DNA of 32,000 nucleotides from Argonema antarcticum A004/B2 (GCF_023333585.1 NZ_JAIQZN010000080.1:685-32684), one strand, 5' to 3'; numbered from the stretch's first letter, positions 1,934 through 28,640 are shown. Made by a program: numbers and translations. Notes: generated by a model not told the origin, from the letters alone.

Positions 1934-1934
1934 A

Positions 1935-6591: not shown

Positions 6592-6596
6592 ATTAA

Positions 6597-7847: not shown

Positions 7848-7891
7848 AGAAACGAAGATGAAAACATTCTTCGCTTCTTTATTTTTAATTT
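7848..7891. terminator. Bidirectional intrinsic terminator between the cmr operon and the trailer end of array 1
   Basis: Stem AGAAACGAAGA (7848-7858) pairs with TCTTCGCTTCT (7868-7878) with one mismatch and a 9-nt loop. A T-run (TTATTTTTAATTT) follows on the + strand, and AAAA precedes it, which reads as a T-run on the minus strand. Confidence 0.7.
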
Positions 7892-7946
7892 ATAATGAAT
7901 ATTTTTACCTTCACCTATAGTCAGATATATCCTTTAACTGGACAGA

Positions 7947-8598
7947 GTTTTCACACCTTTTCCTTCTAATGAAGGTCGCTACTTTTTTATAATACCTTAT
8001 CCAACAATGGTTTTGTAAAGCTTCAACACCTTTACCTTCTAATGAAGGTCGCTACCTGATTCTATTACGGTGATTGCCAGCGCTACCACTTGTTTCAACA
8101 CCTTTACCTTCTAATGAAGGTCGCTACGTCTGGGATTTGTTACCGCCCAGCAAAGCGGCAATCAAATAGCGATGGTTTCAACACCTTTACCTTCTAATGA
8201 AGGTCGCTACCGCCCTAAAAGCATTAGGGCTAGGGGAGCGCCTGATAGTGGTTTCAACACCTTTACCTTCTAATGAAGGTCGCTACGTGACCGGCGCGAC
8301 CGGTTTTGTCGGCTCGGCGGTGGCGCGGGTGGTTTCAACACCTTTACCTTCTAATGAAGGTCGCTACTCGATCGCTAGCCCCTTGCATTTAGAGCTAGAG
8401 CAGTTGCCTCAGCTTTGTTTCAACACCTTTACCTTCTAATGAAGGTCGCTACCACCACTACAGCAGCAGCAGCAAAAACGGGACAAGACAGTTTCAACAC
8501 CTTTACCTTCTAATGAAGGTCGCTACGCCATCATGAAGGTGGGGATTTCTGCAAGTTCGCGCGTTTCAACACCTTTACCTTCTAATGAAGGTCGCTAC
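7947..8598 (-). CRISPR. CRISPR array 1: 9 repeats of 36 bp, 8 spacers of 36-49 bp
   Basis: Repeats start at 7947, 8020, 8092, 8175, 8251, 8332, 8417, 8491 and 8563. The + strand consensus is GTTTCAACACCTTTACCTTCTAATGAAGGTCGCTAC. The transcribed (minus) form is GTAGCGACCTTCATTAGAAGGTAAAGGTGTTGAAAC, which ends in the type III-like tag GTTGAAAC. The two lowest-coordinate repeats are degenerate (3 mismatches and 1 mismatch), marking the trailer. The conserved leader lies on the high-coordinate side. Confidence 0.97.
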
Positions 8599-8805
8599 CT
8601 ACCCCTATTCAACCCCTTATCCTGCCTGATTTCCAGCGGCAGTTTGCGAGGGATACCAATTTTCTTACCACAAACCTCCTTACTTGCACATCTTTAAACG
8701 TCTAAAACCCTTGCCCAGTAAGGCAGCGAGGCTCACAACGAAGTTGCGTTGTTTCAGCGATTTTTCATCACCCTCGCAATTTTAGGGAATTGGGGATAGC
8801 TGGGA
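8599..8805 (-). promoter_or_regulatory. Leader of array 1
   Basis: It flanks the non-degenerate end of the array. Its blocks are collinear with the array 2 leader: AAACCCTTGCCCAG (8705-8718), GTTTCAGCGAT (8751-8761), and the inverted pair TTGCGAGGG (8644-8652) / CCCTCGCAA (8771-8779). Confidence 0.7.
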
Positions 8806-8841
8806 GCGATCGCACTTTACTACACTACTAAGTGCGATCGC
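8806..8841. other. HIP1-based hairpin just downstream of the cmr6-like stop
   Basis: GCGATCGCAC (8806-8815) and GTGCGATCGC (8832-8841) form a perfect 10-bp inverted repeat with a 16-nt loop. The same design recurs at 27888-27921 and 29747-29784. Confidence 0.6.
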
Positions 8842-8849
8842 CTGATTCT

Positions 8850-10364
8850 TCAACATTGCCATACAACCTGGAAACCTTTACTTGTCAGCGTCGCTTCCAC
8901 AGCTTGATCAAATACAGTAATCAAACAATAATTCTCATATTGTCGCACCGCATAACCAGATGGTCGAGTCTCAGAATTTCCACACCATTGGGGGCGATTT
9001 GTGGCTGTGGTACTGCAAACTTTATGCACGATATCTCGCCATTTATCTCCTTTTCCCTGCCAAATACTAATCAGAGAACCAGAAACTATTGCTGGCTTTG
9101 ACATCGCACGCCAACCATAATTTTCACCTAATTTTGCGATTAGTTCCCGCAAACGCTTAATTAACTCATTCAAAGGTTCTTCCAAATTAACTGGCGTAAC
9201 AGTAAATTCACTACCCCGAAAACCATAAAAACGTTCTAAAACGTGGGGTGGTCTGCGCCAACCTGGGCCAAGTCCACCAAGGCGACTAGCTAAAGCAAGC
9301 AATCCACCAATTAAAGGTTTAAATTCTTCATTGCAATCAACACTAATTATCCAAGTTGCGTGTGCTTGACGAGCCGGAATATTAGTATAATCATTGGAAG
9401 TTTGACCGAGCATTCTGGGAATAGATTGCAAATAGCTAGTTAAAGTTAATTTAGCCGGACAACCCAAACCTCCAAATATTTTATCAGTCAGTTTTAAGGC
9501 AGTTTCCTGCGAAAACAAAGATAATGCCAATCTGGTAAAGTAACCGCGTAAATTAGCCCGCAATACTTGAGGCGTCCAGCGGTATTGTCCGGTTTGATTT
9601 TCCCCTGGTTTGTGACTTTGGACGCAAGGTTTCATTCCGGTGAGTTGAATCTCCCAATTTCCTGAAGGAATAAAGGGCGCTAATCGACCAAAACCCGATG
9701 CTTTTCCCCGTCCGATTCCTTGGAATTGCAGCATTTCTTTTAAGCGTGTTTCCAGCCAAGTTTTTTGTTCTTTGCTAGAAGTATCTTTCAGTAAAACTTG
9801 CAAGCAGAATTTATCGAAATTCGGACTGGGAGGTTTAGGAGATACTTGCCATTGAATGCCTAAATTCTTACTTTTTTCGTCAAATAACTGCCATTTTTGT
9901 TGAGCGTTTAATGGATAAGGTTTGAGGTTTTTTAGTAGAATGGTTTCAAAGCGAATTTTGCGGGGTAGCCAGTGAGTGCGATCGCTTGCCAGCAAACTTT
10001 GCCAAAAAGCTTGTTCTTCACTCGGTAAATCATTCCATTTTCCCTGAATCCAACTTAGCAAAGCGCCCCTAATGCTAGAACCGGGAATGCAGGGAACACC
10101 GCCAATTTGGGCGGGTAAAATACCTCCTTCTGGAAAACTACCCCCACCAACTTGAATCGGACTAATAATTTGCAATTTGTCCAAACGTACCGTGTAAGCA
10201 TCAGCATTTTTGGGCGAATAACTTCCTTTTGTATCCCAAGCATCAATAATTATGGCAGAATCTTCTTTACCTTCAATAATATCCTCAGTTTTCGGTGTCC
10301 AGCCTCTTTCTTTTGTCTCTTCAACTGTGTACCATTGGGGCATTTCTTCAGGTAATAGCGCCAT
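8850..10364 (-). CDS. Two-RAMP-domain protein: Cmr6-like N-terminal half, Cmr1-like C-terminal half
   Basis: 504 aa. The first RAMP has GGVPCIPGSSIRGALLSW and the glycine loop QGIGRGKASGFGRL. The second RAMP has LRANLRGYFTRLAL, IFGGLGCPAKLTL and LGGLGPGWRRP. No separate cmr1 or cmr6 occurs elsewhere in the window. Confidence 0.6.
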   Translation of the reverse strand: MALLPEEMPQWYTVEETKERGWTPKTEDIIEGKEDSAIIIDAWDTKGSYSPKNADAYTVRLDKLQIISPIQVGGGSFPEGGILPAQIGGVPCIPGSSIRGALLSWIQGKWNDLPSEEQAFWQSLLASDRTHWLPRKIRFETILLKNLKPYPLNAQQKWQLFDEKSKNLGIQWQVSPKPPSPNFDKFCLQVLLKDTSSKEQKTWLETRLKEMLQFQGIGRGKASGFGRLAPFIPSGNWEIQLTGMKPCVQSHKPGENQTGQYRWTPQVLRANLRGYFTRLALSLFSQETALKLTDKIFGGLGCPAKLTLTSYLQSIPRMLGQTSNDYTNIPARQAHATWIISVDCNEEFKPLIGGLLALASRLGGLGPGWRRPPHVLERFYGFRGSEFTVTPVNLEEPLNELIKRLRELIAKLGENYGWRAMSKPAIVSGSLISIWQGKGDKWRDIVHKVCSTTATNRPQWCGNSETRPSGYAVRQYENYCLITVFDQAVEATLTSKGFQVVWQC

Positions 10365-11460: not shown

Positions 11461-11739
11461 CTAAACGATGAAAGCCGCATCATCTACTGCAAAGTCTGGC
11501 TTTATTCCTAAGACCGCTACTTTGCAACGACAGGGGTCGGATAGGGGATAAAATCTGAGTTGGTCTTCTTTGGAATTGAGTATTTTGAACAACCGTTTTT
11601 GAATGTTCTCGTACTGCTTTTCATCCAGTACCGCCTCGAATACCGACTTCTGCACTCGCAATCCGTAAGTTTCTAATAATTTAGAAACTTTATAGCGGCG
11701 ACTATCATCTACGATGTCATAGCAAATGAGGTAAAACAT
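11461..11739 (-). CDS. cas2: Cas2
   Basis: The sequence MFYLICYDIVDDSRRYKVSKLLETYGLRVQKSVFE.. is typical of the Cas2 ferredoxin fold. The ATG at 11739-11737 overlaps the cas1 stop (TAATG). The longer track ORF to 11880 runs inside cas1. Confidence 0.9.
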   Translation of the reverse strand: MFYLICYDIVDDSRRYKVSKLLETYGLRVQKSVFEAVLDEKQYENIQKRLFKILNSKEDQLRFYPLSDPCRCKVAVLGIKPDFAVDDAAFIV

Positions 11740-12803
11740 TACACTTTTACCAGTATTCGCTGTTCTGTTGGCTGATTGCTGACAGGAGAGATAGCAGTAT
11801 CGGTATCCCATTTCAGCAGCATGGGGCGGTAGAATTCTACATCGCCTAACAAGTAAGCAATGTATTCTTGTACTTGCCATGCTAAACAGCGACGGTAGCT
11901 GAGTTTTCCTGCATATAAATGAGTCACTTCAGTTTGCAGCTTTTCTTCCCAATGCTTGATAAACTTTTTCAACGTAGCAGGATATAGAGATATTGCGTCC
12001 TGTTGGGAAGGTCGGGTAAAATCGTCAGGTGTCAGAATTTGCGAAATTGCCAAATTTGCCACTAATTCGTCTACCAAGAAAGGACGAAATTCGACGGCGA
12101 AATCTTCAATCAAAGATAGTTCATCTTGGCAATAAAAATGCAGGTTGCCGAAGTTGGGATTGAGTCCGGCTGATTGTACAAATCCGTAAATGGTATGATT
12201 TAGCAGGGCATTACCCAGGCGTAACACGCTGTTAATGGAGTGGGAGTGAGGGCGACAAGTACACTGGAAGTTGAAAGCTTTTGCGAGTAACTCGGTGATG
12301 GCTTGATAGTACAAAGAAGCGGCTGTAGTTGAGTATTCCCGCAGTGCGTGGATAGAATCTGCCATCGGCAAATCATCGATTAAAAGGTCTAGCATTTCCA
12401 TCGCTATTTCTGCTTTGGGAGTGGAATGATTTGCACTCAAGCGCAACAGAACGATGCCACAGTTATGCAGGTAAGCGCGGACGATGCTTTCAGCTATGGT
12501 TTTGGGAAAGTTGGGGTTTTGGGCGCGTTTGATTTGCTGGGGAAAGTATTTGGCAGGATGTAGCGATTCTAGTTGTAAGCGTCCTAAATAGTTTCCTTGG
12601 TTGTCGAGGAATAGGACGGGAATTGCCAGAGATTGAGCTAAAGATGCGGCGTTCGGTTGTAAGTGGCAATTACCGAATAGAGTAATTTTGCTTACTTGGG
12701 AAGAATGCACTTGCAGGCACAGTTTGTTTTGGTGGAATACTTGGAAGTAATGATGTTTTACTTTTAAGCAAGTGCCTGGTTCGGTCATGTAGATTGCTGT
12801 CAT
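11739..12803 (-). CDS. cas1: Cas1 without RT, a paralogue of the Cas1 domain of the RT-Cas1 fusion
   Basis: 354 aa. Along its length it parallels RT-Cas1 residues 332-665, for example MTAIYMTEPGTCLKV vs MTTLYVTDQGAYLSI, FGNLH in both, and FIKHWEEKLQTEVTH vs FLKHWEEKLQSELTH. Acidic and His active-site positions are retained (REYS, GNLH, IEDFAVEFR). Confidence 0.9.
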   Translation of the reverse strand: MTAIYMTEPGTCLKVKHHYFQVFHQNKLCLQVHSSQVSKITLFGNCHLQPNAASLAQSLAIPVLFLDNQGNYLGRLQLESLHPAKYFPQQIKRAQNPNFPKTIAESIVRAYLHNCGIVLLRLSANHSTPKAEIAMEMLDLLIDDLPMADSIHALREYSTTAASLYYQAITELLAKAFNFQCTCRPHSHSINSVLRLGNALLNHTIYGFVQSAGLNPNFGNLHFYCQDELSLIEDFAVEFRPFLVDELVANLAISQILTPDDFTRPSQQDAISLYPATLKKFIKHWEEKLQTEVTHLYAGKLSYRRCLAWQVQEYIAYLLGDVEFYRPMLLKWDTDTAISPVSNQPTEQRILVKV

Positions 12804-12842
12804 AATTTGCTTTTAAACTCTACATTCCTATCTTCTCAACCG

Positions 12843-12900
12843 GGTATTTGAGTTGGTATTTGAGTACGCATATTAGTATATGAGTTGGTATATGAGTTGG
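12843..12900 (-). promoter_or_regulatory. 2+2 set of 12-bp direct repeats upstream of cas1
   Basis: Units are GGTATTTGAGTT (12843), GGTATTTGAGTA (12855), a 9-bp gap, GTATATGAGTT (12876) and GGTATATGAGTT (12887). A candidate -10 (TAGAGT on the minus strand, 12817-12822) lies about 20 bp downstream. The block is paralogous to 16386-16444. Confidence 0.6.
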
Positions 12901-12978: not shown

Positions 12979-13206
12979 TATAGCTAGTGACTAGGGAAGA
13001 GGAAAAAGGGTTAAGGAGTAAGAGATGGAAAGACCAAAGGTAAGAGTTGGAGTTGTCCTAATCGCCAAGGTGGTTGCTATAGCTAGGGACTAGGGGCTTT
13101 CTTGCTAGGGGCGAGCGTTGAGGGAGAGGGAAGAGGTTACTCCGTAAGGGATTATGGACTTCATGTAACAGTTGGAGTTGGCTTAATCGCCCTGGCGGTT
13201 GCTATA
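12979..13206. repeat. Degenerate tandem duplication (units of ~99 and ~125 bp)
   Basis: TATAGCTAG(T/G)GACTAGGG occurs at 12979 and 13078. AGTTGGAGTTG.C.TAATCGCC..GG.GGTTGCTATA occurs at 13045-13082 and 13169-13206, matching at 33 of 38 positions. Confidence 0.7.
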
Positions 13207-13250: not shown

Positions 13251-14102
13251 GTTTCAACACCTTTTCTCTTCAGTAAGAGTCAATCGTGAGTACAAATGGT
13301 ACATGGACGATAGCCCTTGGGTAGAGGTTTCAACACCTTTTCTCTTCAGTAAGAGTCAATCCAGCATTTGCTGGTAACGACCCGTATGAAAAACTGATGG
13401 GTTTCAACACCTTTTCTCTTCAGTAAGAGTCAATCTCTTTTTAACAGACCAAAAAGTTGGTGGAGCTTTATAAAGTTTCAACACCTTTTCTCTTCAGTAA
13501 GAGTCAATCATGGAGACACTGTAATTTGCGCAGGTTCCGCGGACGAACAGTTTCAACACCTTTTCTCTTCAGTAAGAGTCAATCTTTGCAATGGTAATTT
13601 CTATGATTGCCAGTGGAACAGTTTCAACACCTTTTCTCTTCAGTAAGAGTCAATCAAGAGCTACCAGGGTGGGCGGTAACCGTCTGCCCTGAAAGTTTCA
13701 ACACCTTTTCTCTTCAGTAAGAGTCAATCCGGGAGCAAATCCAGGAGCGGCGGCAACAGCAAAACAATCGCGTTTCAACACCTTTTCTCTTCAGTAAGAG
13801 TCAATCCAGCAATAGGGTTGGTCGGCACTGGTGTCGCTTGGGGAATGTTTCAACACCTTTTCTCTTCAGTAAGAGTCAATCAATCTTGATAAAATTGAGA
13901 AAAAAGCAGAGGAAGCAAGTTTCAACACCTTTTCTCTTCAGTAAGAGTCAATCTTGTCTGGTTTTGATAGTCTTAGCTGGGCCCGCCGGCCTAGTTTCAA
14001 CACCTTTTCTCTTCAGTAAGAGTCAATCAGTGGCAAACCGACTCGACGCACGAGTCAGAAGCAGCTTGTTTCAACACCTTTTCTCTTCAGTAAGAGTCAA
14101 TC
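13251..14102 (-). CRISPR. CRISPR array 2: 12 repeats of 35 bp, 11 spacers of 36-42 bp
   Basis: Repeats start at 13251, 13327, 13401, 13475, 13550, 13621, 13695, 13772, 13847, 13919, 13994 and 14068, and all are identical. The + strand reads GTTTCAACACCTTTTCTCTTCAGTAAGAGTCAATC. The transcribed form is GATTGACTCTTACTGAAGAGAAAAGGTGTTGAAAC. Confidence 0.97.
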
Positions 14103-14340
14103 CCTTAGCTTCTAGAAGCCAAGCGTTGAGCTAATTCTACACCGCCAGATCTGAGGGGGTCAAGTTGGACGATCGAAAACGAGACAATTCTTCTCAATAA
14201 CCCAGAATAACACCCACCTTAAACCCTTACCCAGAGAGCTATCCGAGGGGGTCAACGAAAGAATGAGGGTTTCAGCGATCGACTGACCCTCTCAGATGCT
14301 TATTATTAGGACGAATATTGATAAGCTTTGCTAATCAAGT
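14103..14340 (-). promoter_or_regulatory. Leader of array 2
   Basis: It lies between the RT-cas1 stop and the first repeat. Conserved blocks are AAACCCTTACCCAG (14221-14234), GTTTCAGCGAT (14269-14279), and the inverted pair ATCTGAGGGGGTC (14149-14161) / GACCCTCTCAGAT (14285-14297). Confidence 0.7.
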
Positions 14341-16338
14341 TCACAGAGTCCAAATCATCGGACGGTAAGTATCAACTTCCCCCATCAAACAAGCAACATA
14401 TTCCCGCACCTGCAACTCCAAACAGCGGCGAAAACTGACTTTGTATCCAGTATGCGGGTGCGTCAATTCCGACTGCAATTTTTCTTCCCAATGCTTCAAA
14501 AACTTTTTTAGCGCATGAGGTTGCAGAAACACGCCACCACGTTCATCTGGCAACGTAAAATCCTCCGATGTGAAAATTTTAGAATTAACCAAATAAGACA
14601 CCAAAGAATCTACCAACTGCGCCCGAAACTCTTCCATCAAATCCGAAACCAATGCCGGATGATTATCGCGAGGAACGTGCAAATTACCGAAATGAGTATG
14701 CAGTCCAATCAATTCGATAAAAGAGCAAACATTTTGACTCAGCAGCGTATATCCCAAACTCATCAAACTGTTAATTGGGTCGGTAGGAGGGCGCTTTGTT
14801 CGCTTTTCAAATGCAAAAGTTCCAGTAAACAGAGAACCCAATGCTTGAAAATACAAAGTGGCTGCTTTTCCTTCATATCCCCGTAACGCATCCATCGATT
14901 CAGCATCAGGTAATTTCTCCATCAATTCAGCAATTGATTCCAGGGATTGCAAGGCAATTTTGCTGGGACGACGACGATTTAATTTGAGCAATAAAGCGCG
15001 GGAATTATGTAATTTAGCCCAAACAATGGCTTCTGCTTGCCGTCGCGTGAATTCAGGATTTAGAGAACATTCAACCTGCCGTGCCAAGTATTCCACCTTC
15101 GCGTGTCCGTCCGTTTGCAAACGCCCGAAATAGCGGCCTTTCTGGGAAAGATACATGACCGGAATTCGCCGCCGCAAAGCACAAGATACCGCTCCGTGCG
15201 ATAAATTGCAACAACCGAATAAGACAATATGGCTGACCCGATTGGCTGGCACTTTAATCCGCAACTCCCGCTGATAGAAAACTTCAAATTGCTGGTTATG
15301 AATGCTCAAGTAAGCACCTTGGTCAGTTACGTACAAAGTAGTCATGGGTTCCTTCCAAAAATGTTCGGTATTGGCAATGGGAAAGTTAATAGGTTTGAGT
15401 AAGCTACAAGCTTTGGGAGGTTGGGAAAAAACGGGAGTTTTTCGAGCTTTTTGTTGATAAGGCATCCCGGAATCCCGGAGTGCGAGTCCTCCTAGTTGAG
15501 GAGGTGGCGGCGGAATTAATTCTCCTTTAGAAAAGCGATAACCTAGAAAAGTAAACTCTTCATCGGGAGTGAAAATATGGGTTTTTCCCGGTTGAAGCTT
15601 CAGATAGATATCGCCCAACCATTGGTTAATTTGTGACAAAGCGCGATTAGCTTGTATCCAATCGCCAGATGCAATGACAAAATCATCGCCATAGCGCACC
15701 AAATTAAATCCCTTACTCAAACAAAATCGATCGAATTCGGTGAGGTACAAGTTAGCTAAAGCACCGGAAAGAATGGCACCTTGCAATACTCCCTGACCGA
15801 AATTTCGGCGAACAGCACCAATTACGATGTCGGATTTTAGTTGCTGTTCGATTAATTGCAGTAAAATAGGTTCTAGCTGCAATTGCTCTAAGTCGGTTAG
15901 CAGTAACGCCCAGCAGAGGTTGTCGAAAAATTTCTCAATATCTGCCTTGACAATCCAAGTGGGTTGGAACTGATAATAGGAATACAGATGTTTGACTGCC
16001 ATCTGAATTCCCCGACCGGGACGGTAAGCGTAGCTGCAATCGAGAAATCGTTCTTCAAGGGGGAAGTAAAGTTCGTTCAGCAGCAGGCGAGAGACAATTC
16101 TATCCCGCACTGTCTGAATGCCAACCAACCGCTTACCACCACTCGATTTGGATAGATAAAATCCTTTGGCGGGACTAACCGTGTAGGTTTCGTTTTGCAG
16201 TCGATGGTGTAAAATTTGTAACTGCTGACGAGCAATTGGGGCAAATAAATCGGTGGTAATACCATCAATACCAGCACTTTTACTTCCCTTGCGAACTTGT
16301 TCCCAAGCAATCTGGAGAAGTTCTGGGGTTAATTCCAT
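14341..16338 (-). CDS. Reverse transcriptase-Cas1 fusion
   Basis: 665 aa. The N-terminal half has group II intron-like RT motifs: YAYRPGRG, KADIEKFFDNL, GVLQGAILSGALANLYL, the YxDD box RYGDDFVI (Tyr codon at 15693-15691), LKLQPGKTHI and FTFLGYRF. A proline linker PPPPPQ follows. The Cas1 domain starts at residue 332 (ATG at 15345). There is no N-terminal Cas6-like domain. Confidence 0.93.
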   Translation of the reverse strand: MELTPELLQIAWEQVRKGSKSAGIDGITTDLFAPIARQQLQILHHRLQNETYTVSPAKGFYLSKSSGGKRLVGIQTVRDRIVSRLLLNELYFPLEERFLDCSYAYRPGRGIQMAVKHLYSYYQFQPTWIVKADIEKFFDNLCWALLLTDLEQLQLEPILLQLIEQQLKSDIVIGAVRRNFGQGVLQGAILSGALANLYLTEFDRFCLSKGFNLVRYGDDFVIASGDWIQANRALSQINQWLGDIYLKLQPGKTHIFTPDEEFTFLGYRFSKGELIPPPPPQLGGLALRDSGMPYQQKARKTPVFSQPPKACSLLKPINFPIANTEHFWKEPMTTLYVTDQGAYLSIHNQQFEVFYQRELRIKVPANRVSHIVLFGCCNLSHGAVSCALRRRIPVMYLSQKGRYFGRLQTDGHAKVEYLARQVECSLNPEFTRRQAEAIVWAKLHNSRALLLKLNRRRPSKIALQSLESIAELMEKLPDAESMDALRGYEGKAATLYFQALGSLFTGTFAFEKRTKRPPTDPINSLMSLGYTLLSQNVCSFIELIGLHTHFGNLHVPRDNHPALVSDLMEEFRAQLVDSLVSYLVNSKIFTSEDFTLPDERGGVFLQPHALKKFLKHWEEKLQSELTHPHTGYKVSFRRCLELQVREYVACLMGEVDTYRPMIWTL

Positions 16339-16385
16339 TTACCTCCTGGGACTGTTGAAACTCTATATTTCCATCGTTGCAGCCC

Positions 16386-16444
16386 GGTATATGAGTTCGT
16401 GTATGAGTATTTGACTTATGTATATGAGTTGGTGTATGACTTGG
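16386..16444. promoter_or_regulatory. 2+2 set of 12-bp direct repeats in the RT-cas1 / HTH-NACHT divergent intergenic region
   Basis: Units are GGTATATGAGTT (16386), CGTGTATGAGTA (16398), a 10-bp gap, GTATATGAGTT (16420) and GGTGTATGACTT (16431). A candidate -10 TAGAGT (minus strand, 16360-16365) and an AGGAGG Shine-Dalgarno sequence precede the ATG at 16338. Confidence 0.6.
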
Positions 16445-16463
16445 ATAGAGTTTTGAAGAATTG

Positions 16464-19400
16464 ATGGCAAAGCGATCGCTGCAAGCATCAGAGTCAGGTA
16501 TCCAGCAAGTTAAACTTGCCTTGGAACGTCGTCAGTTGACTCAAAAAGCTTTTGGCGAAGAATTAGGCATTGCTTGGTCAACCATCAGCAAGTTTTTTAA
16601 CGGGAAACGGATTTATAGGACAATTTTTCTGGAAATTTGCCACAAACTGAGCTTAGATTGGCAAGAAATAGCAGGGGTAGAAATCGCAGGTGGTGATGAA
16701 ACCCCATCTCAGCTGCTAGGAGATGTCCGCCGCTACGCCGCTATTGCTAGAGATGCGCTTAATCCTCGCATTTTAGAAAGAATCGAGCGTAAAATTGTCG
16801 GTGAAAAATATATAACTGCGATTCAACGCGGTGTCAGCAACGTGCAACAAAGAGTTGTACCGATTATTGCACCTGCGGGATACGGGAAAAGTACAATTTT
16901 AGGAAATATATACGACGAACTGATTAAAGCAGAAGTAAGCTGGGTAGCACTTGTTTTGTGCAACTCTTTGAGTATCGAATCGACACCAACGGCGGAAAAG
17001 TTAGCGTTAGCTTTGGGTGAGACAGCTAGCGGTAAACAAATATCGATCGCGCAATTAGTTACCGATTTAACGGTTGAATGCGGTAGGGGTGTGCTGTTAA
17101 TCGATACTTTGGATTTAGTTTTAAATCGCCATTTGGCAACAGCTTTTACCACCGTACTCCGACAACTAATGGATGCAGGTGCAACGGTGGTTTTTACTTG
17201 TCGCGATCACGAATATAATGATTTTTTAGAACCCCCCCGCGAAAAGATGGCAGCGATTAGCGATACGATCGATCGCTATAACGTTCCTACATTCGATCGG
17301 GCCGAAATCAGAGAAGCTGCTGCGACATTTTTCCACAAGTCTCAAACTACTACGCCAGAAATAGGGTATACTTTTGCCGATCGCATTTTAAGTTTATCTG
17401 CCGATAACCGTCCGCTACAAGAAATCACTTGCAATCCCTTATTGTTAGCTTTACTTTGCGACTTGTTCGCCAAAGATGGTAATGTTCCAGCCGATTTAAC
17501 CGTTAGCAAACTCTATCAAAGATATTGGCACGAAAAAATTGCTTACAGTCGCATTGATGATAGTCATACTTCCCTGTTAGCGATCGAAAAAGAAAATTTT
17601 TGTCTCGCCTTCGCCAAATCCCTATTTCAAATGTCGGCTGAAAAACTTTGCGAATCAGCTTACCGAGACGAACTGGGAATTAATTTTACCGAAATAGTTG
17701 CTACGGCTTACGATAATTTATTAAGTGAAGGGGTAATCGAACGTTTACTTTCTACGAAAATCCACTTTTTTCACCAAACTTTATTAGAATATACCATAGC
17801 TTACTGGCTAACTAGACATAGCGCCAAAGAATATCGTTATCAACTATTGCAAATTAGTCAATCAGATGATAGTACTCGCACTTATTGGTTTCCAATTATC
17901 CGCCAGCTTTTGACGATCGTAGATGAATCGGACTTTGAAGAAATTGTTAATAAATTAGATATCAATCGAATAGCAGCCTTTCGCGCGATCGCTTTTGCTG
18001 CTACTTCTCGTAGTGAAGAACAACCACTTTTAAAGTTATTACCAACTGCGCTAGCGCGAGGTAGCGCTTATCAAAGAATATTGTATCGCGCTTTAGCTTC
18101 AGCTTCCGTACCTTTGCAAGAAACAGCATGGAATTGTTTATTGACTATTCTACGAGAAGGCGATCGGGCCACTGCTTCTAGCGCCGCCCAAACTATTGGT
18201 GCTATGCTAAATCCCTGGGGGACATCTCTAAGCGATCGTCTCGAACAAGCTATTAATGCTATATCCCAGCGTACTGCAAGTAATGATAACATTAATGAGC
18301 GATCGCAGCTTTATGGTTGGTTAGTTGATGCAGTTAACCCAATAATTACTGAAAATATTGATAACGAAGCATTAACTATCTTAGGCAAACATTATTTCAA
18401 GTTTTCGGAAGGAACTCGGACGACAGTTATTTGTTTTCACTTAATACCAGGAGTGACTCTGACCGCGCAAGTAGAATTATTCAATATGATCAAAACTGAG
18501 CCTTTACCCAAACGCACCGAGTTTAAATTCAAACAAGAGTTAGCTAAATTTTTAGCCGTTACCTTACCAACCCAAATCGAAAAATCTCCCTTACCGCCAA
18601 CAGATGCTTGGCTGGATAGCCTGCACCATCCCATTCAGTCTGGTTTCGATTTAATTCAAGCTAAAGCGATCGGTCAGTATGCTACTACTAATTCTAACTT
18701 ATTAACTGCTATTCTGCAAGACTTTATTACTGGAGATAAAAAAAATACAAATAATAACTTATTTGCTTTAATAGAAGCCATAAGTTATGGTGCTAGCCAT
18801 CAAATAGCATCGGCATTAATTAAAATTGACCATCTCCCTTCAGAGCGGGTTAAATCGGTAATTACACTTTTGAAAGAGATGAATAATACCCTCGATTTAA
18901 GTCAGCGTGAATCTTTGGCGAACTGGATAAAACCGATCGCGATTGAGCATCCCGAACAATGGTTGCCTACTCTGGCTGACTTAGCCTCAGATTCTTTAAA
19001 GGTACAACAGTTAGTTATAGAACTTTTCTCCACTTTACCTGAAGAAAAGCAAAGTTTAATCCTTAATAAAAACTTGCTAATATTGATTCCAGAGTTATGG
19101 CAAACCCTATCACATAAAGACGCTAATAGCCAAGTTAATTTAGTATTGGTTAAAGTTTATCGAGAAACTGCTCAAACCAATGATTCGGATATTAGCAAAT
19201 TAATTGAATTAGCAATCAAATCTGGCAAAAAGGCAGCAATCTCAGCGGCAGAAGCTATTTTTAGCTTATCTAAAGAGCGAAAGTTACCCAATTTTAAAGA
19301 CTTATGGGATTTAAGTAATTCTACCTTTCCAGGGGTTAGACTAAATTATTTATCAAGTATCAAAAGCCAGATAATCCAATGGAATGTAGCACTCCAAGAA

Positions 19401-19934
19401 TCCGAACTTACAGAAATCTGTTCCCAGTTTGGTAATGAAACAGAACCACAAGTAATCCAACAGTTATGTGAATTAGTCGCTATTTGGGTGGATCTAAATA
19501 AATACGTTCCTTTAAAAGTAGCAGAAATTATTGGTAATATTCCCACTCGCTTATCTGCACTCGGAATATTAGAGGGAGGAGTTGCAGGTGCAACGATCGA
19601 TACTCTAAACGTGATGGCACAACTTCCAAATACCTCTTTAACTCCTCTAGTTGTAAATTGGACGCGACAGCTTTTACATCAAATAGATATGAAAAGAGTT
19701 CAAGAGTCAAAAGTGGTCGATTTATTAGGTTCGGTGGCAAGAATTGATTCTAGCTTTTTGCCTGACGCAGTTAATGAATATTGTCCATCATTACCAACTA
19801 GAAACCAACGCATTGTAGCTTTAGCTGTTAGAAGAGTCGAAGGTGTTGACTCGCCTTTACTGGATTGTTTATTGACGAGGGAGTGGACTGACGCCGAAGT
19901 CAAGAATTTGATTTTAGAATGGAGAGGGGTATGA
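16464..19934 (+). CDS. HTH (XRE-like) - NACHT/STAND NTPase - helical-repeat protein
   Basis: About 1156 aa counted from the ATG at 16464; the track starts one codon earlier at a TTG. The N-terminal HTH is LTQKAFGEELGIAWSTISKFFNGKR. Walker A is IIAPAGYGKST, Walker B-like is GVLLIDTLDLV, and the sensor-like motif is VVFTCRDHEY. The C-terminal ~600 aa appear helical with HEAT/ARM-like periodicity. Confidence 0.75.
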   Translation: MAKRSLQASESGIQQVKLALERRQLTQKAFGEELGIAWSTISKFFNGKRIYRTIFLEICHKLSLDWQEIAGVEIAGGDETPSQLLGDVRRYAAIARDALNPRILERIERKIVGEKYITAIQRGVSNVQQRVVPIIAPAGYGKSTILGNIYDELIKAEVSWVALVLCNSLSIESTPTAEKLALALGETASGKQISIAQLVTDLTVECGRGVLLIDTLDLVLNRHLATAFTTVLRQLMDAGATVVFTCRDHEYNDFLEPPREKMAAISDTIDRYNVPTFDRAEIREAAATFFHKSQTTTPEIGYTFADRILSLSADNRPLQEITCNPLLLALLCDLFAKDGNVPADLTVSKLYQRYWHEKIAYSRIDDSHTSLLAIEKENFCLAFAKSLFQMSAEKLCESAYRDELGINFTEIVATAYDNLLSEGVIERLLSTKIHFFHQTLLEYTIAYWLTRHSAKEYRYQLLQISQSDDSTRTYWFPIIRQLLTIVDESDFEEIVNKLDINRIAAFRAIAFAATSRSEEQPLLKLLPTALARGSAYQRILYRALASASVPLQETAWNCLLTILREGDRATASSAAQTIGAMLNPWGTSLSDRLEQAINAISQRTASNDNINERSQLYGWLVDAVNPIITENIDNEALTILGKHYFKFSEGTRTTVICFHLIPGVTLTAQVELFNMIKTEPLPKRTEFKFKQELAKFLAVTLPTQIEKSPLPPTDAWLDSLHHPIQSGFDLIQAKAIGQYATTNSNLLTAILQDFITGDKKNTNNNLFALIEAISYGASHQIASALIKIDHLPSERVKSVITLLKEMNNTLDLSQRESLANWIKPIAIEHPEQWLPTLADLASDSLKVQQLVIELFSTLPEEKQSLILNKNLLILIPELWQTLSHKDANSQVNLVLVKVYRETAQTNDSDISKLIELAIKSGKKAAISAAEAIFSLSKERKLPNFKDLWDLSNSTFPGVRLNYLSSIKSQIIQWNVALQESELTEICSQFGNETEPQVIQQLCELVAIWVDLNKYVPLKVAEIIGNIPTRLSALGILEGGVAGATIDTLNVMAQLPNTSLTPLVVNWTRQLLHQIDMKRVQESKVVDLLGSVARIDSSFLPDAVNEYCPSLPTRNQRIVALAVRRVEGVDSPLLDCLLTREWTDAEVKNLILEWRGV

Positions 19935-20955: not shown

Positions 20956-23900
20956 ATGTCCACTTTTGAGATCGGGTTACTAAATAACTCCTACAACACA
21001 GCAGATGCCCTTGGAGTTGCCTATCCATCTGACAAGTATAGCTTTACACTTGGAGATACTCAAAATTTAAAGTTATCCTTAACGGGTATCAGTACGATTG
21101 TAGACTGGCAACTCAAAAACAGCGATGGAGCAACTCTGCACAGTGGCTCAGTTAGTCCCACCAACTTAGAAGGAATTAATATTGGTAATTTGTCAGCAGG
21201 GGAATACTCTCTTGAGCTTTCCCAAACAAATAGCGATACCAACTATGCTCTCAACATTGACCCCCTGACTAAGTTGAATGTAGAATCGGGATTTTTTACT
21301 GTCGGACAAACGGGACAAATAGGGGTTGATTACTTAACTGACGGCGGTTGGTATCAGAGCGAGTTGGCCATTTTCAGTTTGACGGGAATGGAGGCATTTT
21401 CTCCAGGCTCGCAAGCTTTTATTAAAGAAGCTGCGAGAAGGTCACTGACCAATTCAACAGAAGGTTACGTTGTTATTGCAGACGCTACAGAAGGAGCCAA
21501 GTTCAGTCCCACTTTTCCTTGGGGAGATAATTATAACAATGGCGAATACAAAAATATAAAGACATTTGCCATGAAACCTGGGGATAATTTTGGCTTTATG
21601 CTTGTTCCCAATGGCACCGCACAACAGGTATTTAATAATCCCAATATAGGTGGAGCAAAGCGTCCTTTATTCTCTTTGGTAACAGCTAACCCGAATGAGG
21701 CGTTTCACGTCGGTCAAATTGCGGATGTAATCGGCGATGGCAAAACTTTTGTTATGGAGGATAAGAGAGTTGATGAAGGTTCGGATAAGGATTATAACGA
21801 TATAGTTTTTCGAGTAACTGATGCTACAGGAAAAGCAGTTAAGTTAGATGATGTAATTGCTCCCGATAAAGATTGGCGCAAAACTAAGGTAGTGGATGAT
21901 TTAATTGCTTACATCAATACGCCTCCTCAGTTTTTGCAATTCACCACCAAGACACTCTATAAAGCAGGTGAAGCGATCGATCTTACTGATGCTAAAGTTT
22001 ATGACGAAAATCGAGACTTGACCAAAGTAAATTTCTGGTTAAAGAGAAAGGAAGAGGTAGACTGGGTTGATATCAAAGATGCGACTAAAGATGCTTTCAA
22101 AGTGAATGAAGACTGGACAAGCTTCAATTACTCTTTCAGAGATTTAGTAGGGGGTAGTTACGAACTGAAGGCGATCGCATTCGACGAGCGGCAACAAAGC
22201 AACGAGGTAATTAAGGAGTTTCGGGTCAATGCCGCTCCGAAAGAACTGCAATTTATTATTCCACAAGATACTTACGATATCGGAGAAACGGTAAGTATCA
22301 CTGGAGGTAAAGTGTATGATGCTGACGGGGTGGATGACTTAGTTAAAGTAGGTTTCTTTTTAAAGAAAGGCAATAATAGTTGGCAAGATATTACTGCCGA
22401 TGTCACCAGTTTTACGGCTGGTAGTGGAGATAATAATTTAGCAAACTTCACCTACTCCTTATCACCAAATTTATTAAAAGAGGCTGGCACTTACGAGATC
22501 AAAGGCGTAGCTTACGATCTAGCAGGTGATTCCAGTAATGAGGTAATTAAGAACTTTACCATCCGCAGCAAAACTGTCGAACCATCACCCAACTCGCCGC
22601 CCGAACAATTGCAGTTTAACTTATTACCATCTTACACGATCGGTCAACCAGTCAGCATTACGGGTGGAAAAGTATACGACAAAAATGGTGAGAGCGACCT
22701 GAAATCAGTAGATTTAGAGCTATACAAAGATAACGTTTTTTTGAACAAATATACTGTAGCGATCGCGGATGATAATCAAAGTGGAGACGGCTGGGGAACT
22801 TTCAACTATTTGTGGAGCGATTTATCAGAAGGGAATTATCGCTTAGAGGCGAAAGCTTTCGATGGAGTGGAATACTCTGCTAAAGTAAGCCAAAGCTTTT
22901 CCGTCATTAGCGAACCTGTCGCCGAGCCAGTACCCAATTCGCCACCTGAATTCTTGCAGTTTAACTTATTGCCATCCTACAAAATTGGTCAGCCAATCAC
23001 CATTATGGATGGAAAAGTATACGACAAAAATGGTGAGAGTGACCTAAAATCAGTAGATTTAGAGCTATACAAAGATAACGTTTTTTTGAACAAATATACT
23101 GTAGCGATCGCGGATGATAATCAAAGTGGAGACGGCTGGGGAACTTTCAACTATTTGTGGAGCGATTTACCAGAAGGGAATTATCGCTTAGAGGCGAAAG
23201 CTTTCGATGGAGTGGAATACTCTGCTAAAGTAAGCCAAAGCTTTTCCGTCATTAGCGAACCTGTCGCCGAGCCAGTACCCAATTCGCCACCTGAATTCTT
23301 GCAATTGAATTTATTGCCATCCTATACAACAGGTCAAGCAATCACTTTCACAAACGCGAAAGTATACGATAAAAATGGAGAGGGCGACCTAAAAGAGGTA
23401 ACTTTAGAGTTATATAAAGATAACAATTTTTTGGGCAATTATACAGTCGGTATTGTGGATGATAGTCAAAGTGGAGATGGCTGGGGAACTTTTAACATTT
23501 CTTTTAATCAGCTAGCAGAGGGAAATTATCAGATTAAAGCATCCGCTTACGATAAAGCGAATACCGAAAGTAATAAAGCAGTTCAAAACTTTACCGTAGA
23601 GGCAGACAAACCGCCACAGCCTAACAGAGCGCCTGGATCTTTAGATTTTAGCATTCTGCCTCTCTACGTTAATGGTGAGACACTAAGCTTTAGTGATGGG
23701 AAAGTTTATGATCCAGATGGAGCTAGAGACGTAGATAGAGTATATTTTTGGTTGGGTACAATTGGTGGCGAACAAGTTGACGCGATCGAAGTTTCTGAAT
23801 TTACTCCTGATAACAAGGGTAACGCTAGATTTGATTTCAATTACGACTTGAGTAAATTAGCACCAGGACGCTACCAATTGTGGGCGATCGCAACTGACAA

Positions 23901-26900
23901 ATCGGGAGATTATAGCGAACCAACAATCCAAACTTTCTCTATTACCACTGATGCGGGAATCAAGGGATTATCGGATGAAGAAAGATTAGCTATGCTAGAT
24001 GCGGCTAAGCTGGAAAACTATACTCCCGAACAATTAGCTGCAACTCGCGAATGGGTAGTTTGGGTAACGCCGGGTCAATCTTCAGCAGAGTTAGCAACAG
24101 CAGTAGAAGCGCAAGATAAGGGTGCTACTGGATATATTCCAAATACATACATTTGGGAATTTCCCGATACTATTCCTCCCGAAGAAGTTATTCAAAGATT
24201 AAGTTCACTTCCTGGTTTGGAATTATCTTACCCGCTTGTTCCCGTACCGACAACTTTATCATCGACTCCAAACGACGAACCTTTAGTACAAAAACCAGGA
24301 ACTTTAAACCCAAGTTACCCAGTTCCCGATCCGAACGATACCAAACTTCGCGATTTTCTTAATAGTTACCAGTGGCATTTACGTAGTGGAGTGAACCCAA
24401 GTGCTGATGCTAATATCAGCAACGCTTGGAATTTAGCTCAAGGTAGGGGAGTAGTTATTGGTATTGTTGATGATGGGTTAGACTTTAACAACCCAGATTT
24501 GAAAGATAGGTATCGAGGAGATTTAAGCTGGGATTTTAATGAAAACAATAGCACTCCTTCGCCAACTTATAATAAAACCATTAGTTTGAAGAATACACCG
24601 AAATTAATCAGAGATTATGGGCAGACTAATATTTATTTAGATGTGCCTTTAACTGGGGTATTAAGTGATGTAAACGTGCGTTTAAATGCGACGCACGCCA
24701 AACTAAGCGATTTAGAGATTTCGCTGGATAGTCCCAACGAACCAATATTTAACCCTACTATTGGGATGGCATCTTCATCGTTTAGGAGAATACAAGGAGG
24801 AAATGGTTCCGGTAAAAACCCCGTTAAATTGTTTGATAATTTCATCGGTAATGGTGCTAATTTAACCAATACTATTTTCGATGACCAAGCAAGTTTATCA
24901 ATTTTGCAGGGAACAGCACCTTTTAATGGCAAATTTAGACCGTTAGGAACTTTAAGTGATTTTAACGATCAGTGGGCTGGGGGTACTTGGAATTTAAGAA
25001 TTACCGACAAAGCTTGGGTAGCTGCTGGTTTGTTAAGTAATTGGACATTGGATTTACAAACTTATAATCCTCATGGAACGGCTGTGGCTGGGATAGCAGC
25101 TGCTAGCGGTAACAATAGTATTAACGGAAGTGGAGTAGCGCCGTTAGCTTCTTTAGCTGGATTGCGGTTAGTTGCTGATGCGGTAACAGATGAACAAATA
25201 GCGATGGCATTAACTCATAAAAACCAAGATATCGACATTTATAACAACAGTCGGAAGCTGCAAGATTGGTTAGTTAAGCCAGCGCTAACTATGGCAGCAA
25301 TGAAAGAAGGAACTAATATTGGCAGAAGAGGATTGGGTAATAATTACGTATTTGGTGCTGGTAACGATGAGTGGACTGGCGGTAATGTTAATTACAATGG
25401 GTTGGCGAATTCTAGATATGCGATCGCAGTAGCAGCGATCGACCATACAGGCGAACAAACAATCTACAGCGAACCGGGCGCACCGTTGTTAGTTTCTGCT
25501 TACTCTAGCGGCAGTGGAGTTGGTATTACTACAACTGATTTAATGGGTAATAACGGTTACTCAACCGGAGATTATACTAATAGATTTGGCGGTACTTCCG
25601 CAGCTGCACCTTTAGTTTCTGGTGCGATCGCTTTGATGTTAGAAGCTAATCCAAATTTAAGTTGGCGCGACGTGCAACATATTCTAGTACGGACTACCAA
25701 GCAAAACGATCCGACTGACTTAGATTGGACTACCAATGGTGCGGGATATCACATCAATCATAAGTATGGTTTTGGGGCAATAGATGCGGATGCTGCTGTA
25801 CGTTTAGCTAAGAATTGGATATCAGCAGGGGATGAAGTAATGATTAGTTCCAATCTCCAAAACGTGCTAGAAAATATTCCCGATGGAGACGAACAGACGG
25901 GTGTAAATTCAACAATTAGCATTAATGACGATATTTCTATTGAAAAAGTAGAGGTGTTATTTGATGCTAATCATAATGATTGGAAAGACTTGCAAATAAT
26001 GCTAATTTCTCCTGATGGTACGCAGTCAATTTTAGCTGATTATATACCCGCTAACCCAAGTGCAACTACTACCAACAGGTTAACGCCTTTATCTAACATT
26101 TGGACTTTTACTTCTGCGCGTCACTGGAGCGAGTCTTCTAAGGGAGAATGGAAATTGCAGGTTTTCGATCGGGAGGGGAACCAAGTTGAGGGCAAGTGGA
26201 ATTCTTGGAAATTGAATATTTATGGAACTAAACCAATAGTAACAGTGAGTGCTACTGATGCCAATGCTTCAGAAGATGGCGATCCGGGTGAGTTTACGAT
26301 TACCCGTACTGGTAATAACAAACATCCCCTGACCGTGAATTATTCTTTGCCGGGAAGTGCTAAGAATGGTTCAGATTATACTGCGCTTGGCAATATTGTT
26401 ATCCCGGAAGGACAGTCTACGGTAAAAATTAAGATCGATCCGATTGACGATTTGCTGTTTGAAGGAAATGAGGATGCGGTTATCAGTTTAGCTGCTAGCA
26501 GTGCGTACAATATAGGAACACAGGGAAGTGGAGCAGTGACGATCGCAGATAATGATATTCCAACTGAACCCTGGATACGTCAGATAGGGACTGTAACTGA
26601 CTGGGATATGTCTCGCGGTACAGCTATTGACAGCACTGGTAATGTCTATATGGCTGGAATCACATTTGGATCTCTAGATGGCAACGTTAACGCTAGTGGA
26701 ATTAATACCAGCTGGGCAGATCCTTTTATCACCAAATACGATGCCAATGGCAACAAACTTTGGACTCGTCAGTTAGGTTCTTCTGGCTATGACTACTACA
26801 ACGGTGTCACTGCTGACAATACAGGCAATGTCTATACAGTGGGATACGATGATGGTCTTGGTACTGTGTTGGGTGGTGTCACGCTCATCAAGTGGGATAC

Positions 26901-28058: not shown

Positions 28059-28640
28059 ATGACAGTAACGCTAGACAAAACAAAAGACCAACGCCTAGTT
28101 CATTTTGGAATGAGTTGGCAACAGTTCAAGTTACTTCAGGAAAGCTTTGCCGACTCACGAGGAATCCGACTCGCTTATTACAAAGGAGAAATTGAAATTG
28201 TGACACTTTCCCCTGACCACGAATCAATCAGCCGCATGATTACAGGGTTGCTAATTGTGTATTTTTTGAACAAAAACATTGAATTCAACCCATTAGGCAG
28301 CTTTACCCAAGAAAAGGAAGAGGAAGTTTCAGCGCAAGCAGACGAATCATTTGCTATTGGTAGGTCAACCGCAACTAAACCTGACTTGGTTGTAGAAGTA
28401 ATCTTTACCAGTGGTAGCGATCGCAAATTGAAACGCTATAAAGTTTTAGGTGTTCCTGAAGTTTGGTTTTGGGAAGATGGTTTATTCAGGCTGTATCATT
28501 TGCGGGAATCAGGATACGAGCGGATAGAGCGTTCTGAAGTTTTGCCAGATTTGGATATCAACCTGTTAACTCGTTGTGTGATGATGGCTTCTAAACTTGA
28601 AGCTCTTAAAGTGTTTCAACAGGCAATTGCTCAAGCTTAA
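28059..28640 (+). CDS. Uma2 (DUF820) family restriction-endonuclease-like protein
   Basis: 193 aa with the family-typical layout: ..YYKGEIEIVTLSPDHE.., PDLVVEVIFTSGS, YKVLGVPEVWFWE. Confidence 0.8.
   Translation: MTVTLDKTKDQRLVHFGMSWQQFKLLQESFADSRGIRLAYYKGEIEIVTLSPDHESISRMITGLLIVYFLNKNIEFNPLGSFTQEKEEEVSAQADESFAIGRSTATKPDLVVEVIFTSGSDRKLKRYKVLGVPEVWFWEDGLFRLYHLRESGYERIERSEVLPDLDINLLTRCVMMASKLEALKVFQQAIAQA

Follow-up and report, generated by a model that had tools for sequence, protein, structure and literature searches.

What decides when a CRISPR system acquires new spacers is poorly understood, and the problem is acute for type III systems with a fusion of reverse transcriptase (RT) to Cas1, in which capture of host RNA risks autoimmunity. 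The stretch of Argonema antarcticum A004/B2 analyzed here (32,000 nucleotides [nt]; GCF_023333585.1, NZ_JAIQZN010000080.1:685-32684; the window refers to this whole stretch) contains such a locus, and divergent from its RT-cas1 gene lies a gene for a STAND protein with an N-terminal helix-turn-helix (HTH) domain. Could this protein be the switch that governs adaptation? Our analysis makes it probable that it is a signal-dependent, oligomerizing transcription factor whose dedicated targets are the adaptation genes of RT-Cas1-containing type III loci in cyanobacteria. The following features carry the argument.

16464..19934, plus strand: HTH-STAND gene, proposed CRISPR-adaptation regulator; 1,156 amino acids (aa) plus stop, assigned by open reading frame (ORF), NCBI identity, and domains
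14341..16338, minus strand: RT-cas1 fusion gene, proposed primary target; 665 aa, RVT_1 (E value, 3e-28) and Cas_Cas1 (E value, 3e-89)
16387..16443, plus strand: operator 1, four 12-bp direct-repeat units starting at 16387, 16399, 16420, and 16432, between RT-cas1 and the STAND gene
11739..12803, minus strand: stand-alone cas1, proposed second target; 354 aa, Cas_Cas1 (E value, 4e-55)
12844..12899, plus strand: operator 2, the same four-unit site with starts at 12844, 12856, 12876, and 12888, upstream of the stand-alone cas1

Linkage of the HTH-STAND gene to RT-cas1

The HTH-STAND gene is an uninterrupted ORF on the plus strand that begins at 16461 (TTG) or 16464 (ATG) and ends at 19934; the 1,156-aa ATG form is identical to the NCBI entry 'helix-turn-helix transcriptional regulator [Argonema antarcticum]'. 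A 125-bp spacer separates it from the divergent RT-cas1, whose product also matches TIGR00287 and group II RT models (NCBIfam). The window is a type III CRISPR locus, with Cas10/Cmr2 and RAMP genes at 3395-7370 (plus strand) and 8850-10364 (minus strand), and the combination of RT-Cas1 with a second, more distant cas1, seen in cyanobacteria only, corresponds to RT-CRISPR clade 3 of Toro et al. (PMC5541045).

We sampled one genome per species with a family-alignment scan, which gave 52 loci, and located cas genes by tblastn with the Cas proteins of the window; the 38 loci in which the match includes the HTH were counted, the window and earlier look-ups included. An initial annotation of this DNA, which predicted a ligand-triggered transcription factor, had made its proposal depend on conserved linkage to CRISPR loci, and RT-cas1 indeed lies within 10 kb upstream of 33 of the 38 HTH-bearing genes, whose products are 32 to 81% identical to the query. 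The divergent pairing, whose conservation in other cyanobacteria it had proposed to test, recurs in 26 loci, at distances of 108 to 817 bp, and RT-cas1 is co-directional in 7, 1.8 to 9.7 kb upstream, with the array in between in L026, L036, L043, and L053. Two loci have a divergent cas1 without RT, and the rest are one degraded remnant, one locus with too little upstream DNA, and one with nothing within 10 kb. Among the genera represented are Floridaenema, Laspinema, Stenomitos, Iningainema, Scytonema, Tolypothrix, Rhizonema, Leptolyngbya, Thainema, Allocoleopsis, Elainella, Microcoleus, Oscillatoria, Phormidium, Geitlerinema, and Coleofasciculus. The HTH-bearing subfamily thus keeps a conserved cas neighborhood in distant genomes.

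For each of the five closest homologues examined (81%, 45 to 47%, and 43% identity, from metagenomes and various genera), the direct upstream neighbor is a divergent RT-cas1, and the genes on the far side of the STAND gene vary among these loci. Linkage also survives in the rearranged loci L043 and L053, where the STAND gene sits at the array trailer. RT-Cas1 proteins of the partner loci are 57 to 74% identical, and the distance matrices of STAND and RT-Cas1 proteins are correlated (Mantel r = 0.52, reached in 0 of 2,000 permutations; 16 complete pairs).

A predicted four-unit operator at adaptation-gene promoters

The repeated operator-like units that had been noticed near the gene proved to be a conserved operator. 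Operator 1 (GTATATGAGTTC / GTGTATGAGTAT / GTATATGAGTTG / GTGTATGACTTG) has a spacing of 0/12/33/45 and a composite score of 68.7 and lies 49 bp upstream of the RT-cas1 start; operator 2, with a spacing of 0/12/32/44 and a score of 64.7, lies 41 bp upstream of the cas1 start. Nearly all divergent loci show the same arrangement in the orthologous intergenic region. From 79 units we derived a weight matrix with the consensus GTATATGAGTT, in which T4, T6, and T10 are near-invariant. When both strands of 3.3 Mb of fetched DNA were scanned for four units at offsets 0/12/33/45 (±1), 34 composite sites were found, compared to none in shuffled sequence. The spacing is exactly 33/45 in 28 of them and 32/44 in 6; every site lies 38 to 293 bp upstream of an RT-cas1 (21 sites) or cas1 (13 sites) start, with the units invariably pointing away from that gene.

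The operator persists at adaptation-gene promoters even when kilobases of DNA lie between them and the STAND gene (L015, L043, and L053). For this reason, and because units also precede the distant cas1, we rejected an exclusive assignment of the units to the STAND gene; judged by where they fall in the sequence, they are a feature of adaptation-gene promoters, occurring twice per locus. Compared with the NtcA (GTA-N8-TAC), RpaB HLR1, and LexA motifs, the units presumably fit none of them. In the RT-cas1 5' region, GTTTCAAC matches the start of the CRISPR repeat, an 8-mer agreement that we attributed to chance.

Downstream of the two operators lie the remaining components of the adaptation module.

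14103..14340, minus strand: putative CRISPR leader, directly downstream of RT-cas1
13251..14102, minus strand: CRISPR array of 12 identical 35-nt repeats (GTTTCAACACCTTTTCTCTTCAGTAAGAGTCAATC on the plus strand) and 11 spacers
11461..11880, minus strand: cas2, CRISPR_Cas2 (E value, 1.6e-23; match at aa 48 to 118)

The array is presumably read on the minus strand, co-directionally with RT-cas1, since the reverse complement of the repeat ends in GTTGAAAC; the order RT-cas1, leader, array is the same in L043 and L053. The true cas2 start is probably internal to the listed ORF.

The placement of the sites bears on a possible role as a cofactor of the adaptation machinery, in which the protein, bound to DNA near the locus, would recruit or scaffold RT-Cas1-Cas2 during leader recognition or substrate capture while its nucleoside triphosphatase (NTPase) drives assembly. 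Such a role would suit the strict co-inheritance with RT-Cas1 and the loci in which the gene abuts the array, and accessory DNA-binding factors guide Cas1 integration in other systems (PMC9456107). However, the conserved sites mark the 5' ends of RT-cas1 and cas1 and not the leader-repeat junction, no unit occurs in the putative leader, the second operator serves a different Cas1, and a 250-aa protein that shares only the HTH can take the same position (see below). We therefore regard a cofactor role as improbable.

Reverse search and exchange of the presumed sensor

A reverse search, in which an RT-Cas1 alignment was run against metagenome contigs, yielded 80 loci. Among these, the units occur only in the close RT-Cas1 clade (55 to 74% identity; L059 to L064), and neither units nor an HTH gene was found in the distant RT-Cas1 clades (26 to 39%) or the Cas1-only loci. 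In L059, L061, L062, and L063 the divergent neighbor matches the query over residues 1 to 70/80 only: it is a protein of about 250 aa with an HTH 54 to 59% identical to that of the query, followed by DUF4384 (E values, 1e-13 to 1e-16), encoded at the usual divergent position beside the same four-unit operator. In L064, the one close locus without an HTH gene, RT-cas1 directly borders an inserted integrase and insertion sequence (IS) element. The Microcoleus units have diverged in sequence, at the RT-cas1 promoter and the cas1 promoter alike. Taken together, the DUF4384 swap, L064, the control loci, and the parallel divergence in Microcoleus imply that the HTH is the constant partner of the operator and that the sensor module is exchangeable. 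When recognition-helix residues were compared with the diverged Microcoleus units, no clean residue-base correlation emerged.

As a separate observation, a 1,324-aa TPR-CHAT protein is encoded in L059 (2137-6111) two genes downstream of the HTH-DUF4384 regulator, with a 122-aa ORF between them; the proximity of a CHAT protease to a type III locus is reminiscent of Csx29-type arrangements.

Protein architecture

An AlphaFold model built on a 33-sequence alignment (mean pLDDT, 83.4) divides the protein into an HTH (aa 1 to 70), a disordered linker (73 to 80), an alpha/beta NTPase (about 125 to 260), a helical arm with winged helix (about 280 to 450), and a solenoid (452 to 1156). We annotated the gene as follows.

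16464..16679, plus strand: XRE/Cro-C1-type HTH domain (aa 1 to 72); HTH_3 (E value, 3e-4), five-helix bundle in the model
16710..17243, plus strand: STAND P-loop NTPase domain (aa 83 to 260); AAA_22, nSTAND_NTPase5, Foldseek matches, and invariant columns
17244..17813, plus strand: helical arm and winged-helix region (aa 261 to 450); from model secondary structure, aa 318 to 345 at low confidence
17814..19931, plus strand: HEAT-like alpha-solenoid, presumed sensor (aa 451 to 1156); all-helical repeats, pLDDT mostly above 85

The tentative assignment of the HTH to the XRE/Cro-C1 family draws on a Pfam HTH_3 match at aa 17 to 49 (E value, 3e-4; 21.1 bits against a cutoff of 23) and weak HTH_19 and HTH_26 matches, on an HTH_26 score above the cutoff in the L059 paralogue (23.0 against 22), and on a weak HipB match (E value, 0.009) when the HTH profile was run against Protein Data Bank (PDB) sequences. 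The modeled helices span aa 10 to 22, 27 to 34, 38 to 45, 52 to 61, and 66 to 69, of which the third (38 to 45, WSTISKFF) is the predicted recognition helix. A profile search with the HTH alone returned only 14 short proteins, one of them a fragment of a different HTH-NACHT gene without CRISPR linkage, and did not reveal the range of architectures.

The initial annotation had described a NACHT-type P-loop. The motifs that it quoted are present, and Walker A (A136-PAGY-G141-K142-S143-T144), Walker B (LLID214-TL-D217), and FTCR247D are invariant in the 33-member alignment; the NACHT assignment itself did not hold, in that the NACHT model (PF05729) scores 13.9 bits against a threshold of 26.7, NB-ARC is likewise faint, and Walker B reads DTLDL with no terminal Glu, so that the NACHT signature D[GAS]hDE is absent. 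Weak or faint precomputed NACHT matches exist in some homologues. AAA_22 passes its cutoff (28.1 bits against 27), and the closest named family by sequence appears to be nSTAND_NTPase5 (PF25199), the commonest precomputed family among the homologues, which scores below its own cutoff (26.7 bits against 34; E value, 5.6e-6; profile positions 21 to 138 of 145). Walker A, Walker B, and the conserved Arg after strand 4 (R247) agree with the STAND superfamily P-loop, and in the model the helical arm and winged helix after the NTPase and the C-terminal repeats agree with its layout. The Walker A motif (16869-16895, aa 136 to 144) begins with Ala (APAGYGKST) in the query and its closest relatives and with Gly in most family members (G[PAGS]AGYGKS); the Ala form still fits the consensus [AG]x4GK[ST].

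A resemblance to bacterial NLR-related antiphage proteins, also proposed earlier, was borne out by Foldseek, in which the NTPase part matched NLRP2, NLRP3, Avs4 bound to a phage portal (8dgf), and a STAND-TPR protein (6mfv) at E values of 1e-7 to 1e-5, with TM-scores that are low because of the multidomain layout. The solenoid matched transportin, importin-beta, and CAND1; it is all-alpha, as had been predicted, and at about 700 aa is longer than the 600 aa first estimated. We presume from the model that it is the sensor. PDB sequence searches and NCBIfam gave no informative family for the STAND protein, none of the PADLOC families (Avs1-5, bNACHT, etc.) matched at an E value of ≤1, and Pfam/NCBIfam showed no match to CARF or Csa3, a family that combines a CARF domain with a C-terminal winged HTH.

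Relatives with other N-terminal domains

In some family members, TIR/SEFIR, CHAT, caspase-like, PNP, or other domains stand in place of the first ~85 residues. A distance tree computed from the NTPase-plus-solenoid core puts the CHAT and PNP forms at the base and, within the HTH clade, a TIR form (core identity of 53% to an HTH form), caspase-like forms (64%), and one further variant. It follows that the N-terminus was exchanged more than once, which agrees with the earlier idea that a DNA-binding domain occupies the effector position. Ten HTH-less relatives (seven genome loci plus individual TIR, CHAT, and caspase-like proteins) have no cas neighbors, and the TIR and CHAT forms adjoin a ThsB-like TIR gene and other CHAT/NB-ARC genes; CRISPR linkage is found only in the HTH version of the family. 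Mean pairwise identity is 57% for the HTH, 53% for the NTPase, 53% for the arm and winged helix, 32% for the solenoid, and 65% for RT-Cas1. The solenoid is thus the fastest-evolving part of the protein, and such C-terminal repeats are seen in the sensors of NLR and Avs proteins.

These relatives matter for the alternative that the initial annotation had itself raised, namely, an independent Avs/bNACHT-like antiphage gene that shares the defense island, with the HTH acting as a global effector or in autoregulation and the units belonging to another regulator. The fold similarity to Avs4 and NLRs speaks for it, as do the close relatives with TIR, CHAT, caspase-like, and PNP effectors that sit among other conflict genes and the generic listing of HTH as an N-terminal 'adaptor' of bacterial NACHT proteins in the literature. 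Yet the gene stays next to RT-cas1 in many genera, at identities as low as 32%, with variable genes on its far side; the effector-swapped relatives lack CRISPR linkage; the operator is found together with the HTH gene and in none of the control cas1/RT-cas1 loci; an HTH-DUF4384 protein occupies the same position elsewhere; and PADLOC gave no match. An independent defense gene is, in our judgment, very improbable.

A related HTH, 48% identical to that of the query, heads a non-CRISPR NACHT+NCH2 gene in Nostoc (L143, 6840-9306; L145, 6840-7276). Gene calling splits it into two overlapping ORFs, and a divergent ORF of only 63 to 65 aa lies upstream. Its upstream region contains the unit-like sequences GATATGAGTGA and TGTGTATGTGA, which hints that the HTH family may recognize TATGAGT-like sites more generally.

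Possible promoter geometry and the probable direction of regulation

Two further elements of the RT-cas1/STAND intergenic region bear on how the operator might act.

16367..16382, minus strand: conserved block that reads CTGCAACGATGGAAAT on the sense strand of RT-cas1, promoter-proximal to unit 1 at a distance of 4 bp
16411..16416, plus strand: TTGACT, candidate -35 of the STAND gene promoter, in the spacer between the unit pairs, read from the sequence

The CTGCAACGATGGAAAT block is kept across the intergenic regions, Microcoleus included, and has a paralogous counterpart upstream of cas1 at 12824-12837. It is a possible -10/transcription start site region of the RT-cas1 promoter, in which case unit 1 would lie over the -35 position. 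On the other strand, TTGACT and, at an 18-nt spacing, a candidate -10 (TATGAC, 16435-16440) form an element that units 3 and 4 overlap and that may be the regulator's own promoter; TTGAC recurs in the unit-pair spacer in L001, L003, L013, L018, L030, and L034 and is absent from the cas1 operator copy. By a consensus sigma-70 scan, the 125-bp spacer holds no canonical promoter, and operator 2 holds only a weak one.

The same geometry would serve a repressor, by which RT-cas1 and cas1 are kept silent until a signal, received through the STAND module, releases them; silencing would be sensible because a type III system is endangered when it acquires self RNA. In favor of repression, the presumed -35 of the target promoters lies under the operator, as does the regulator's putative promoter in divergent loci, the small HTH-DUF4384 variant at the same site resembles a simple repressor-type protein, and many XRE-family proteins repress. 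We nevertheless favor activation, because the characterized STAND regulators MalT, GutR, and AfsR are all activators in which oligomerization promotes binding (the three, and a paper on the AfsR structure, are cited in PMC13581612) and because the target promoters look noncanonical, as would fit an activator-dependent promoter. Repression seems rather unlikely, if clearly worth keeping in view.

In Microcoleus (L023, L026, and L036), several intergenic regions, upstream of RT-cas1 and of the STAND gene, also contain repeated GC-rich hairpin elements (GGGGCGGGTT...GGTGAACCCGCCCC), and a conserved AT-rich block (AAAATTAC[TC]ATTAATTT) lies just before the STAND start codon.

Proposed mechanism

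In the transcription factor model that we favor, the N-terminal XRE-type HTH would read the 12-bp direct-repeat units (consensus GTATATGAGTT), four of which, as two tandem pairs, lie upstream of RT-cas1 and again of cas1-cas2. A single HTH on an asymmetric unit would bind weakly, and stable occupancy would need several HTHs arranged head to tail. Binding of a ligand by the solenoid would trigger nucleotide-dependent, head-to-tail oligomerization of the STAND NTPase and with it cooperative occupancy of the four units. The oligomer would overlap the -35 region of the RT-cas1 and cas1 promoters and switch both, most likely on; control of the RT-cas1 promoter might extend to the leader and array, which lie directly downstream, and in the divergent arrangement the oligomer would also cover the regulator's own promoter, giving autoregulation. 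The signal would most likely be an infection or stress cue, because close relatives fuse the same NTPase-plus-solenoid chassis to TIR, caspase-like, CHAT, and PNP death effectors, and spacer acquisition from RNA would be licensed only when needed.

A more specific version holds that an NLR-like receptor, upon meeting a phage- or infection-derived ligand, oligomerizes on the operator and turns on RT-Cas1 and Cas1-Cas2, and possibly the array by read-through, so that RNA-derived spacers are acquired only in infected cells. We put this forward tentatively, as a possibility that falls short of being the likelier outcome; the case for an infection-related signal is an argument by analogy from the effector-swapped relatives and the Avs4 fold match.

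Several points weigh against the proposed mechanism. The units are direct repeats, and XRE-type HTH proteins usually bind palindromes as dimers. For the window protein, the Pfam HTH models score slightly under their curated cutoffs. The operator exists without the STAND module in the DUF4384 variant, and infection sensing is argued by analogy only. No sigma-70 promoter was called, which leaves the suggested geometry to a noncanonical conserved block. Co-directional loci have no operator at the regulator's own gene, and autoregulation is thus not universal. A related HTH sits on a non-CRISPR NACHT gene in Nostoc. Lastly, the loci were chosen by similarity and are not a census of RT-Cas1 clade-3 loci.

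Comparison with known systems

The predicted regulator would join two known kinds, STAND transcription factors and CRISPR-associated regulators. MalT, the STAND/LAL regulator of the Escherichia coli maltose regulon, forms ligand- and ATP-dependent oligomers that occupy asymmetric direct-repeat boxes at or near the -35, and AfsR and other large SARP regulators of Streptomyces bind direct repeats overlapping the -35. The likeness to MalT consists of a STAND NTPase, a helical-repeat sensor, and several DNA-binding domains on repeated boxes, the last of these being predicted here; however, MalT carries a C-terminal LuxR-type HTH, whereas the protein described here has an N-terminal XRE-type HTH, an nSTAND5-like NTPase, and cas1-type targets, and Pfam/NCBIfam family scans detected no sequence relationship to MalT. 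AfsR has an N-terminal DNA-binding domain, a STAND NTPase, and C-terminal helical repeats in the same order, but its parts are an OmpR-type winged helix with BTAD, an NB-ARC NTPase, and TPR repeats, as opposed to an XRE HTH, and its targets are antibiotic clusters.

Among CRISPR-associated regulators, Csa3a of Sulfolobus islandicus activates adaptation genes and triggers de novo spacer acquisition (PMC4333418). As a CRISPR-locus transcription factor aimed at adaptation genes, it would be a functional analogue of the predicted regulator; in contrast to the latter, it is small and dimeric, combines a CARF sensor for cyclic oligoadenylate-type ligands with a winged HTH, has no NTPase, and belongs to archaeal type I-A systems. 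Avs and bNACHT proteins share the order of N-terminal output, STAND NTPase, and large C-terminal sensor, as well as the Avs4 fold match and a fast-evolving sensor, but here the output is a DNA-binding domain with a conserved predicted operator, not a death enzyme, and the gene is tied to cas1 genes. The HTH-DUF4384 proteins have the HTH, the divergent position, and the four-unit operator in common with the STAND form, with a beta-rich DUF4384 in place of the NTPase and solenoid and presumably a different or simpler input.

Shmakov et al. (2018; 10.1101/270033) described a TPR-STAND clade linked to minimal type I-E loci that lack cas1, cas2, and cas3, a linkage cited again in PMC13581612; no other CRISPR-linked STAND proteins were encountered in the literature searched. 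That clade is likewise monophyletic with a long-term CRISPR-cas linkage, but its members have TPRs and no HTH and their loci are without adaptation genes, whereas the link here is to type III adaptation genes. An HTH at the effector position of bacterial NACHT/STAND proteins has been listed among 'adaptors' that possibly activate a transcriptional response, with no target named (Kibby et al., preprint; Kaur et al. 2020). RT-Cas1 surveys, a type III accessory-gene survey, and a targeted search of the open-access literature did not mention the gene or the operator, and the association of STAND genes with RT-cas1 appears to be unreported within the open-access literature searched.

Implications

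The regulator-operator pair at two adaptation operons constitutes a concrete, testable switch, with a defined site (GTATATGAGTT four times at 0/12/33/45), two natural sensor versions (STAND and DUF4384), and 'rewired' relatives that drive TIR, caspase-like, and CHAT effectors. Should the sensor respond to an infection cue, this would be the first case of CRISPR memory formation under the control of an NLR-like receptor and a bacterial counterpart of innate-to-adaptive coupling, with a single sensor chassis serving suicide effectors in some proteins and memory formation in others. Bacterial NLRs headed by an HTH, to date listed only as a curiosity, would then gain a defined target. A practical use of the operator and regulator could be the induction of spacer acquisition by RT-Cas1, for instance in tools for transcriptional recording.

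Other features of the window and neighboring genes

Four ORFs within the type III effector operon (80-3398, 5572-6591, and 7384-7821; 617, 487, 339, and 145 aa) have no Pfam match at an E value of ≤0.01 and are probably divergent Cmr subunits or accessory proteins. An Rfam scan of the window gave no match. A 42-nt direct repeat, with copies 86% identical and 125 nt apart (13040-13081 and 13165-13206), falls within the ~350 bp that separate the cas1 operator from the array's trailer end.

Directly downstream of the STAND gene lies a giant ORF of 2,276 aa (20956-27786) that holds 2.7 copies of a 345-bp tandem repeat (22587-23500), subtilase-type motifs (HGTAVAGIAAA and GGTSAAAPLVSG), and many C-terminal beta-propeller-like 'GNxLWTRQLGT' repeats; its pairing with the STAND gene is not conserved in other loci. 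It is followed by a Uma2-family endonuclease gene (28059-28640) and an IS630-type transposase present as two overlapping ORFs (HTH_Tnp_IS630 at 28703-29095 and DDE_3 at 28987-29649), either frameshifted or subject to programmed frameshifting.

In Laspinema sp. D1 (L002, 16670-18382), the STAND gene is followed by AcrVA2-like and ArdA anti-defense-type genes along with further small genes of mobile elements, which places a mobile element directly against the CRISPR locus. In L005, RT-cas1 is split into two ORFs of 522 and 144 aa (7864-9863), and stray fragments of RT-Cas1 and of the STAND C-terminus (13663-13869 and 17889-18296) lie downstream, beside a group II intron RT, all signs of rearrangement.

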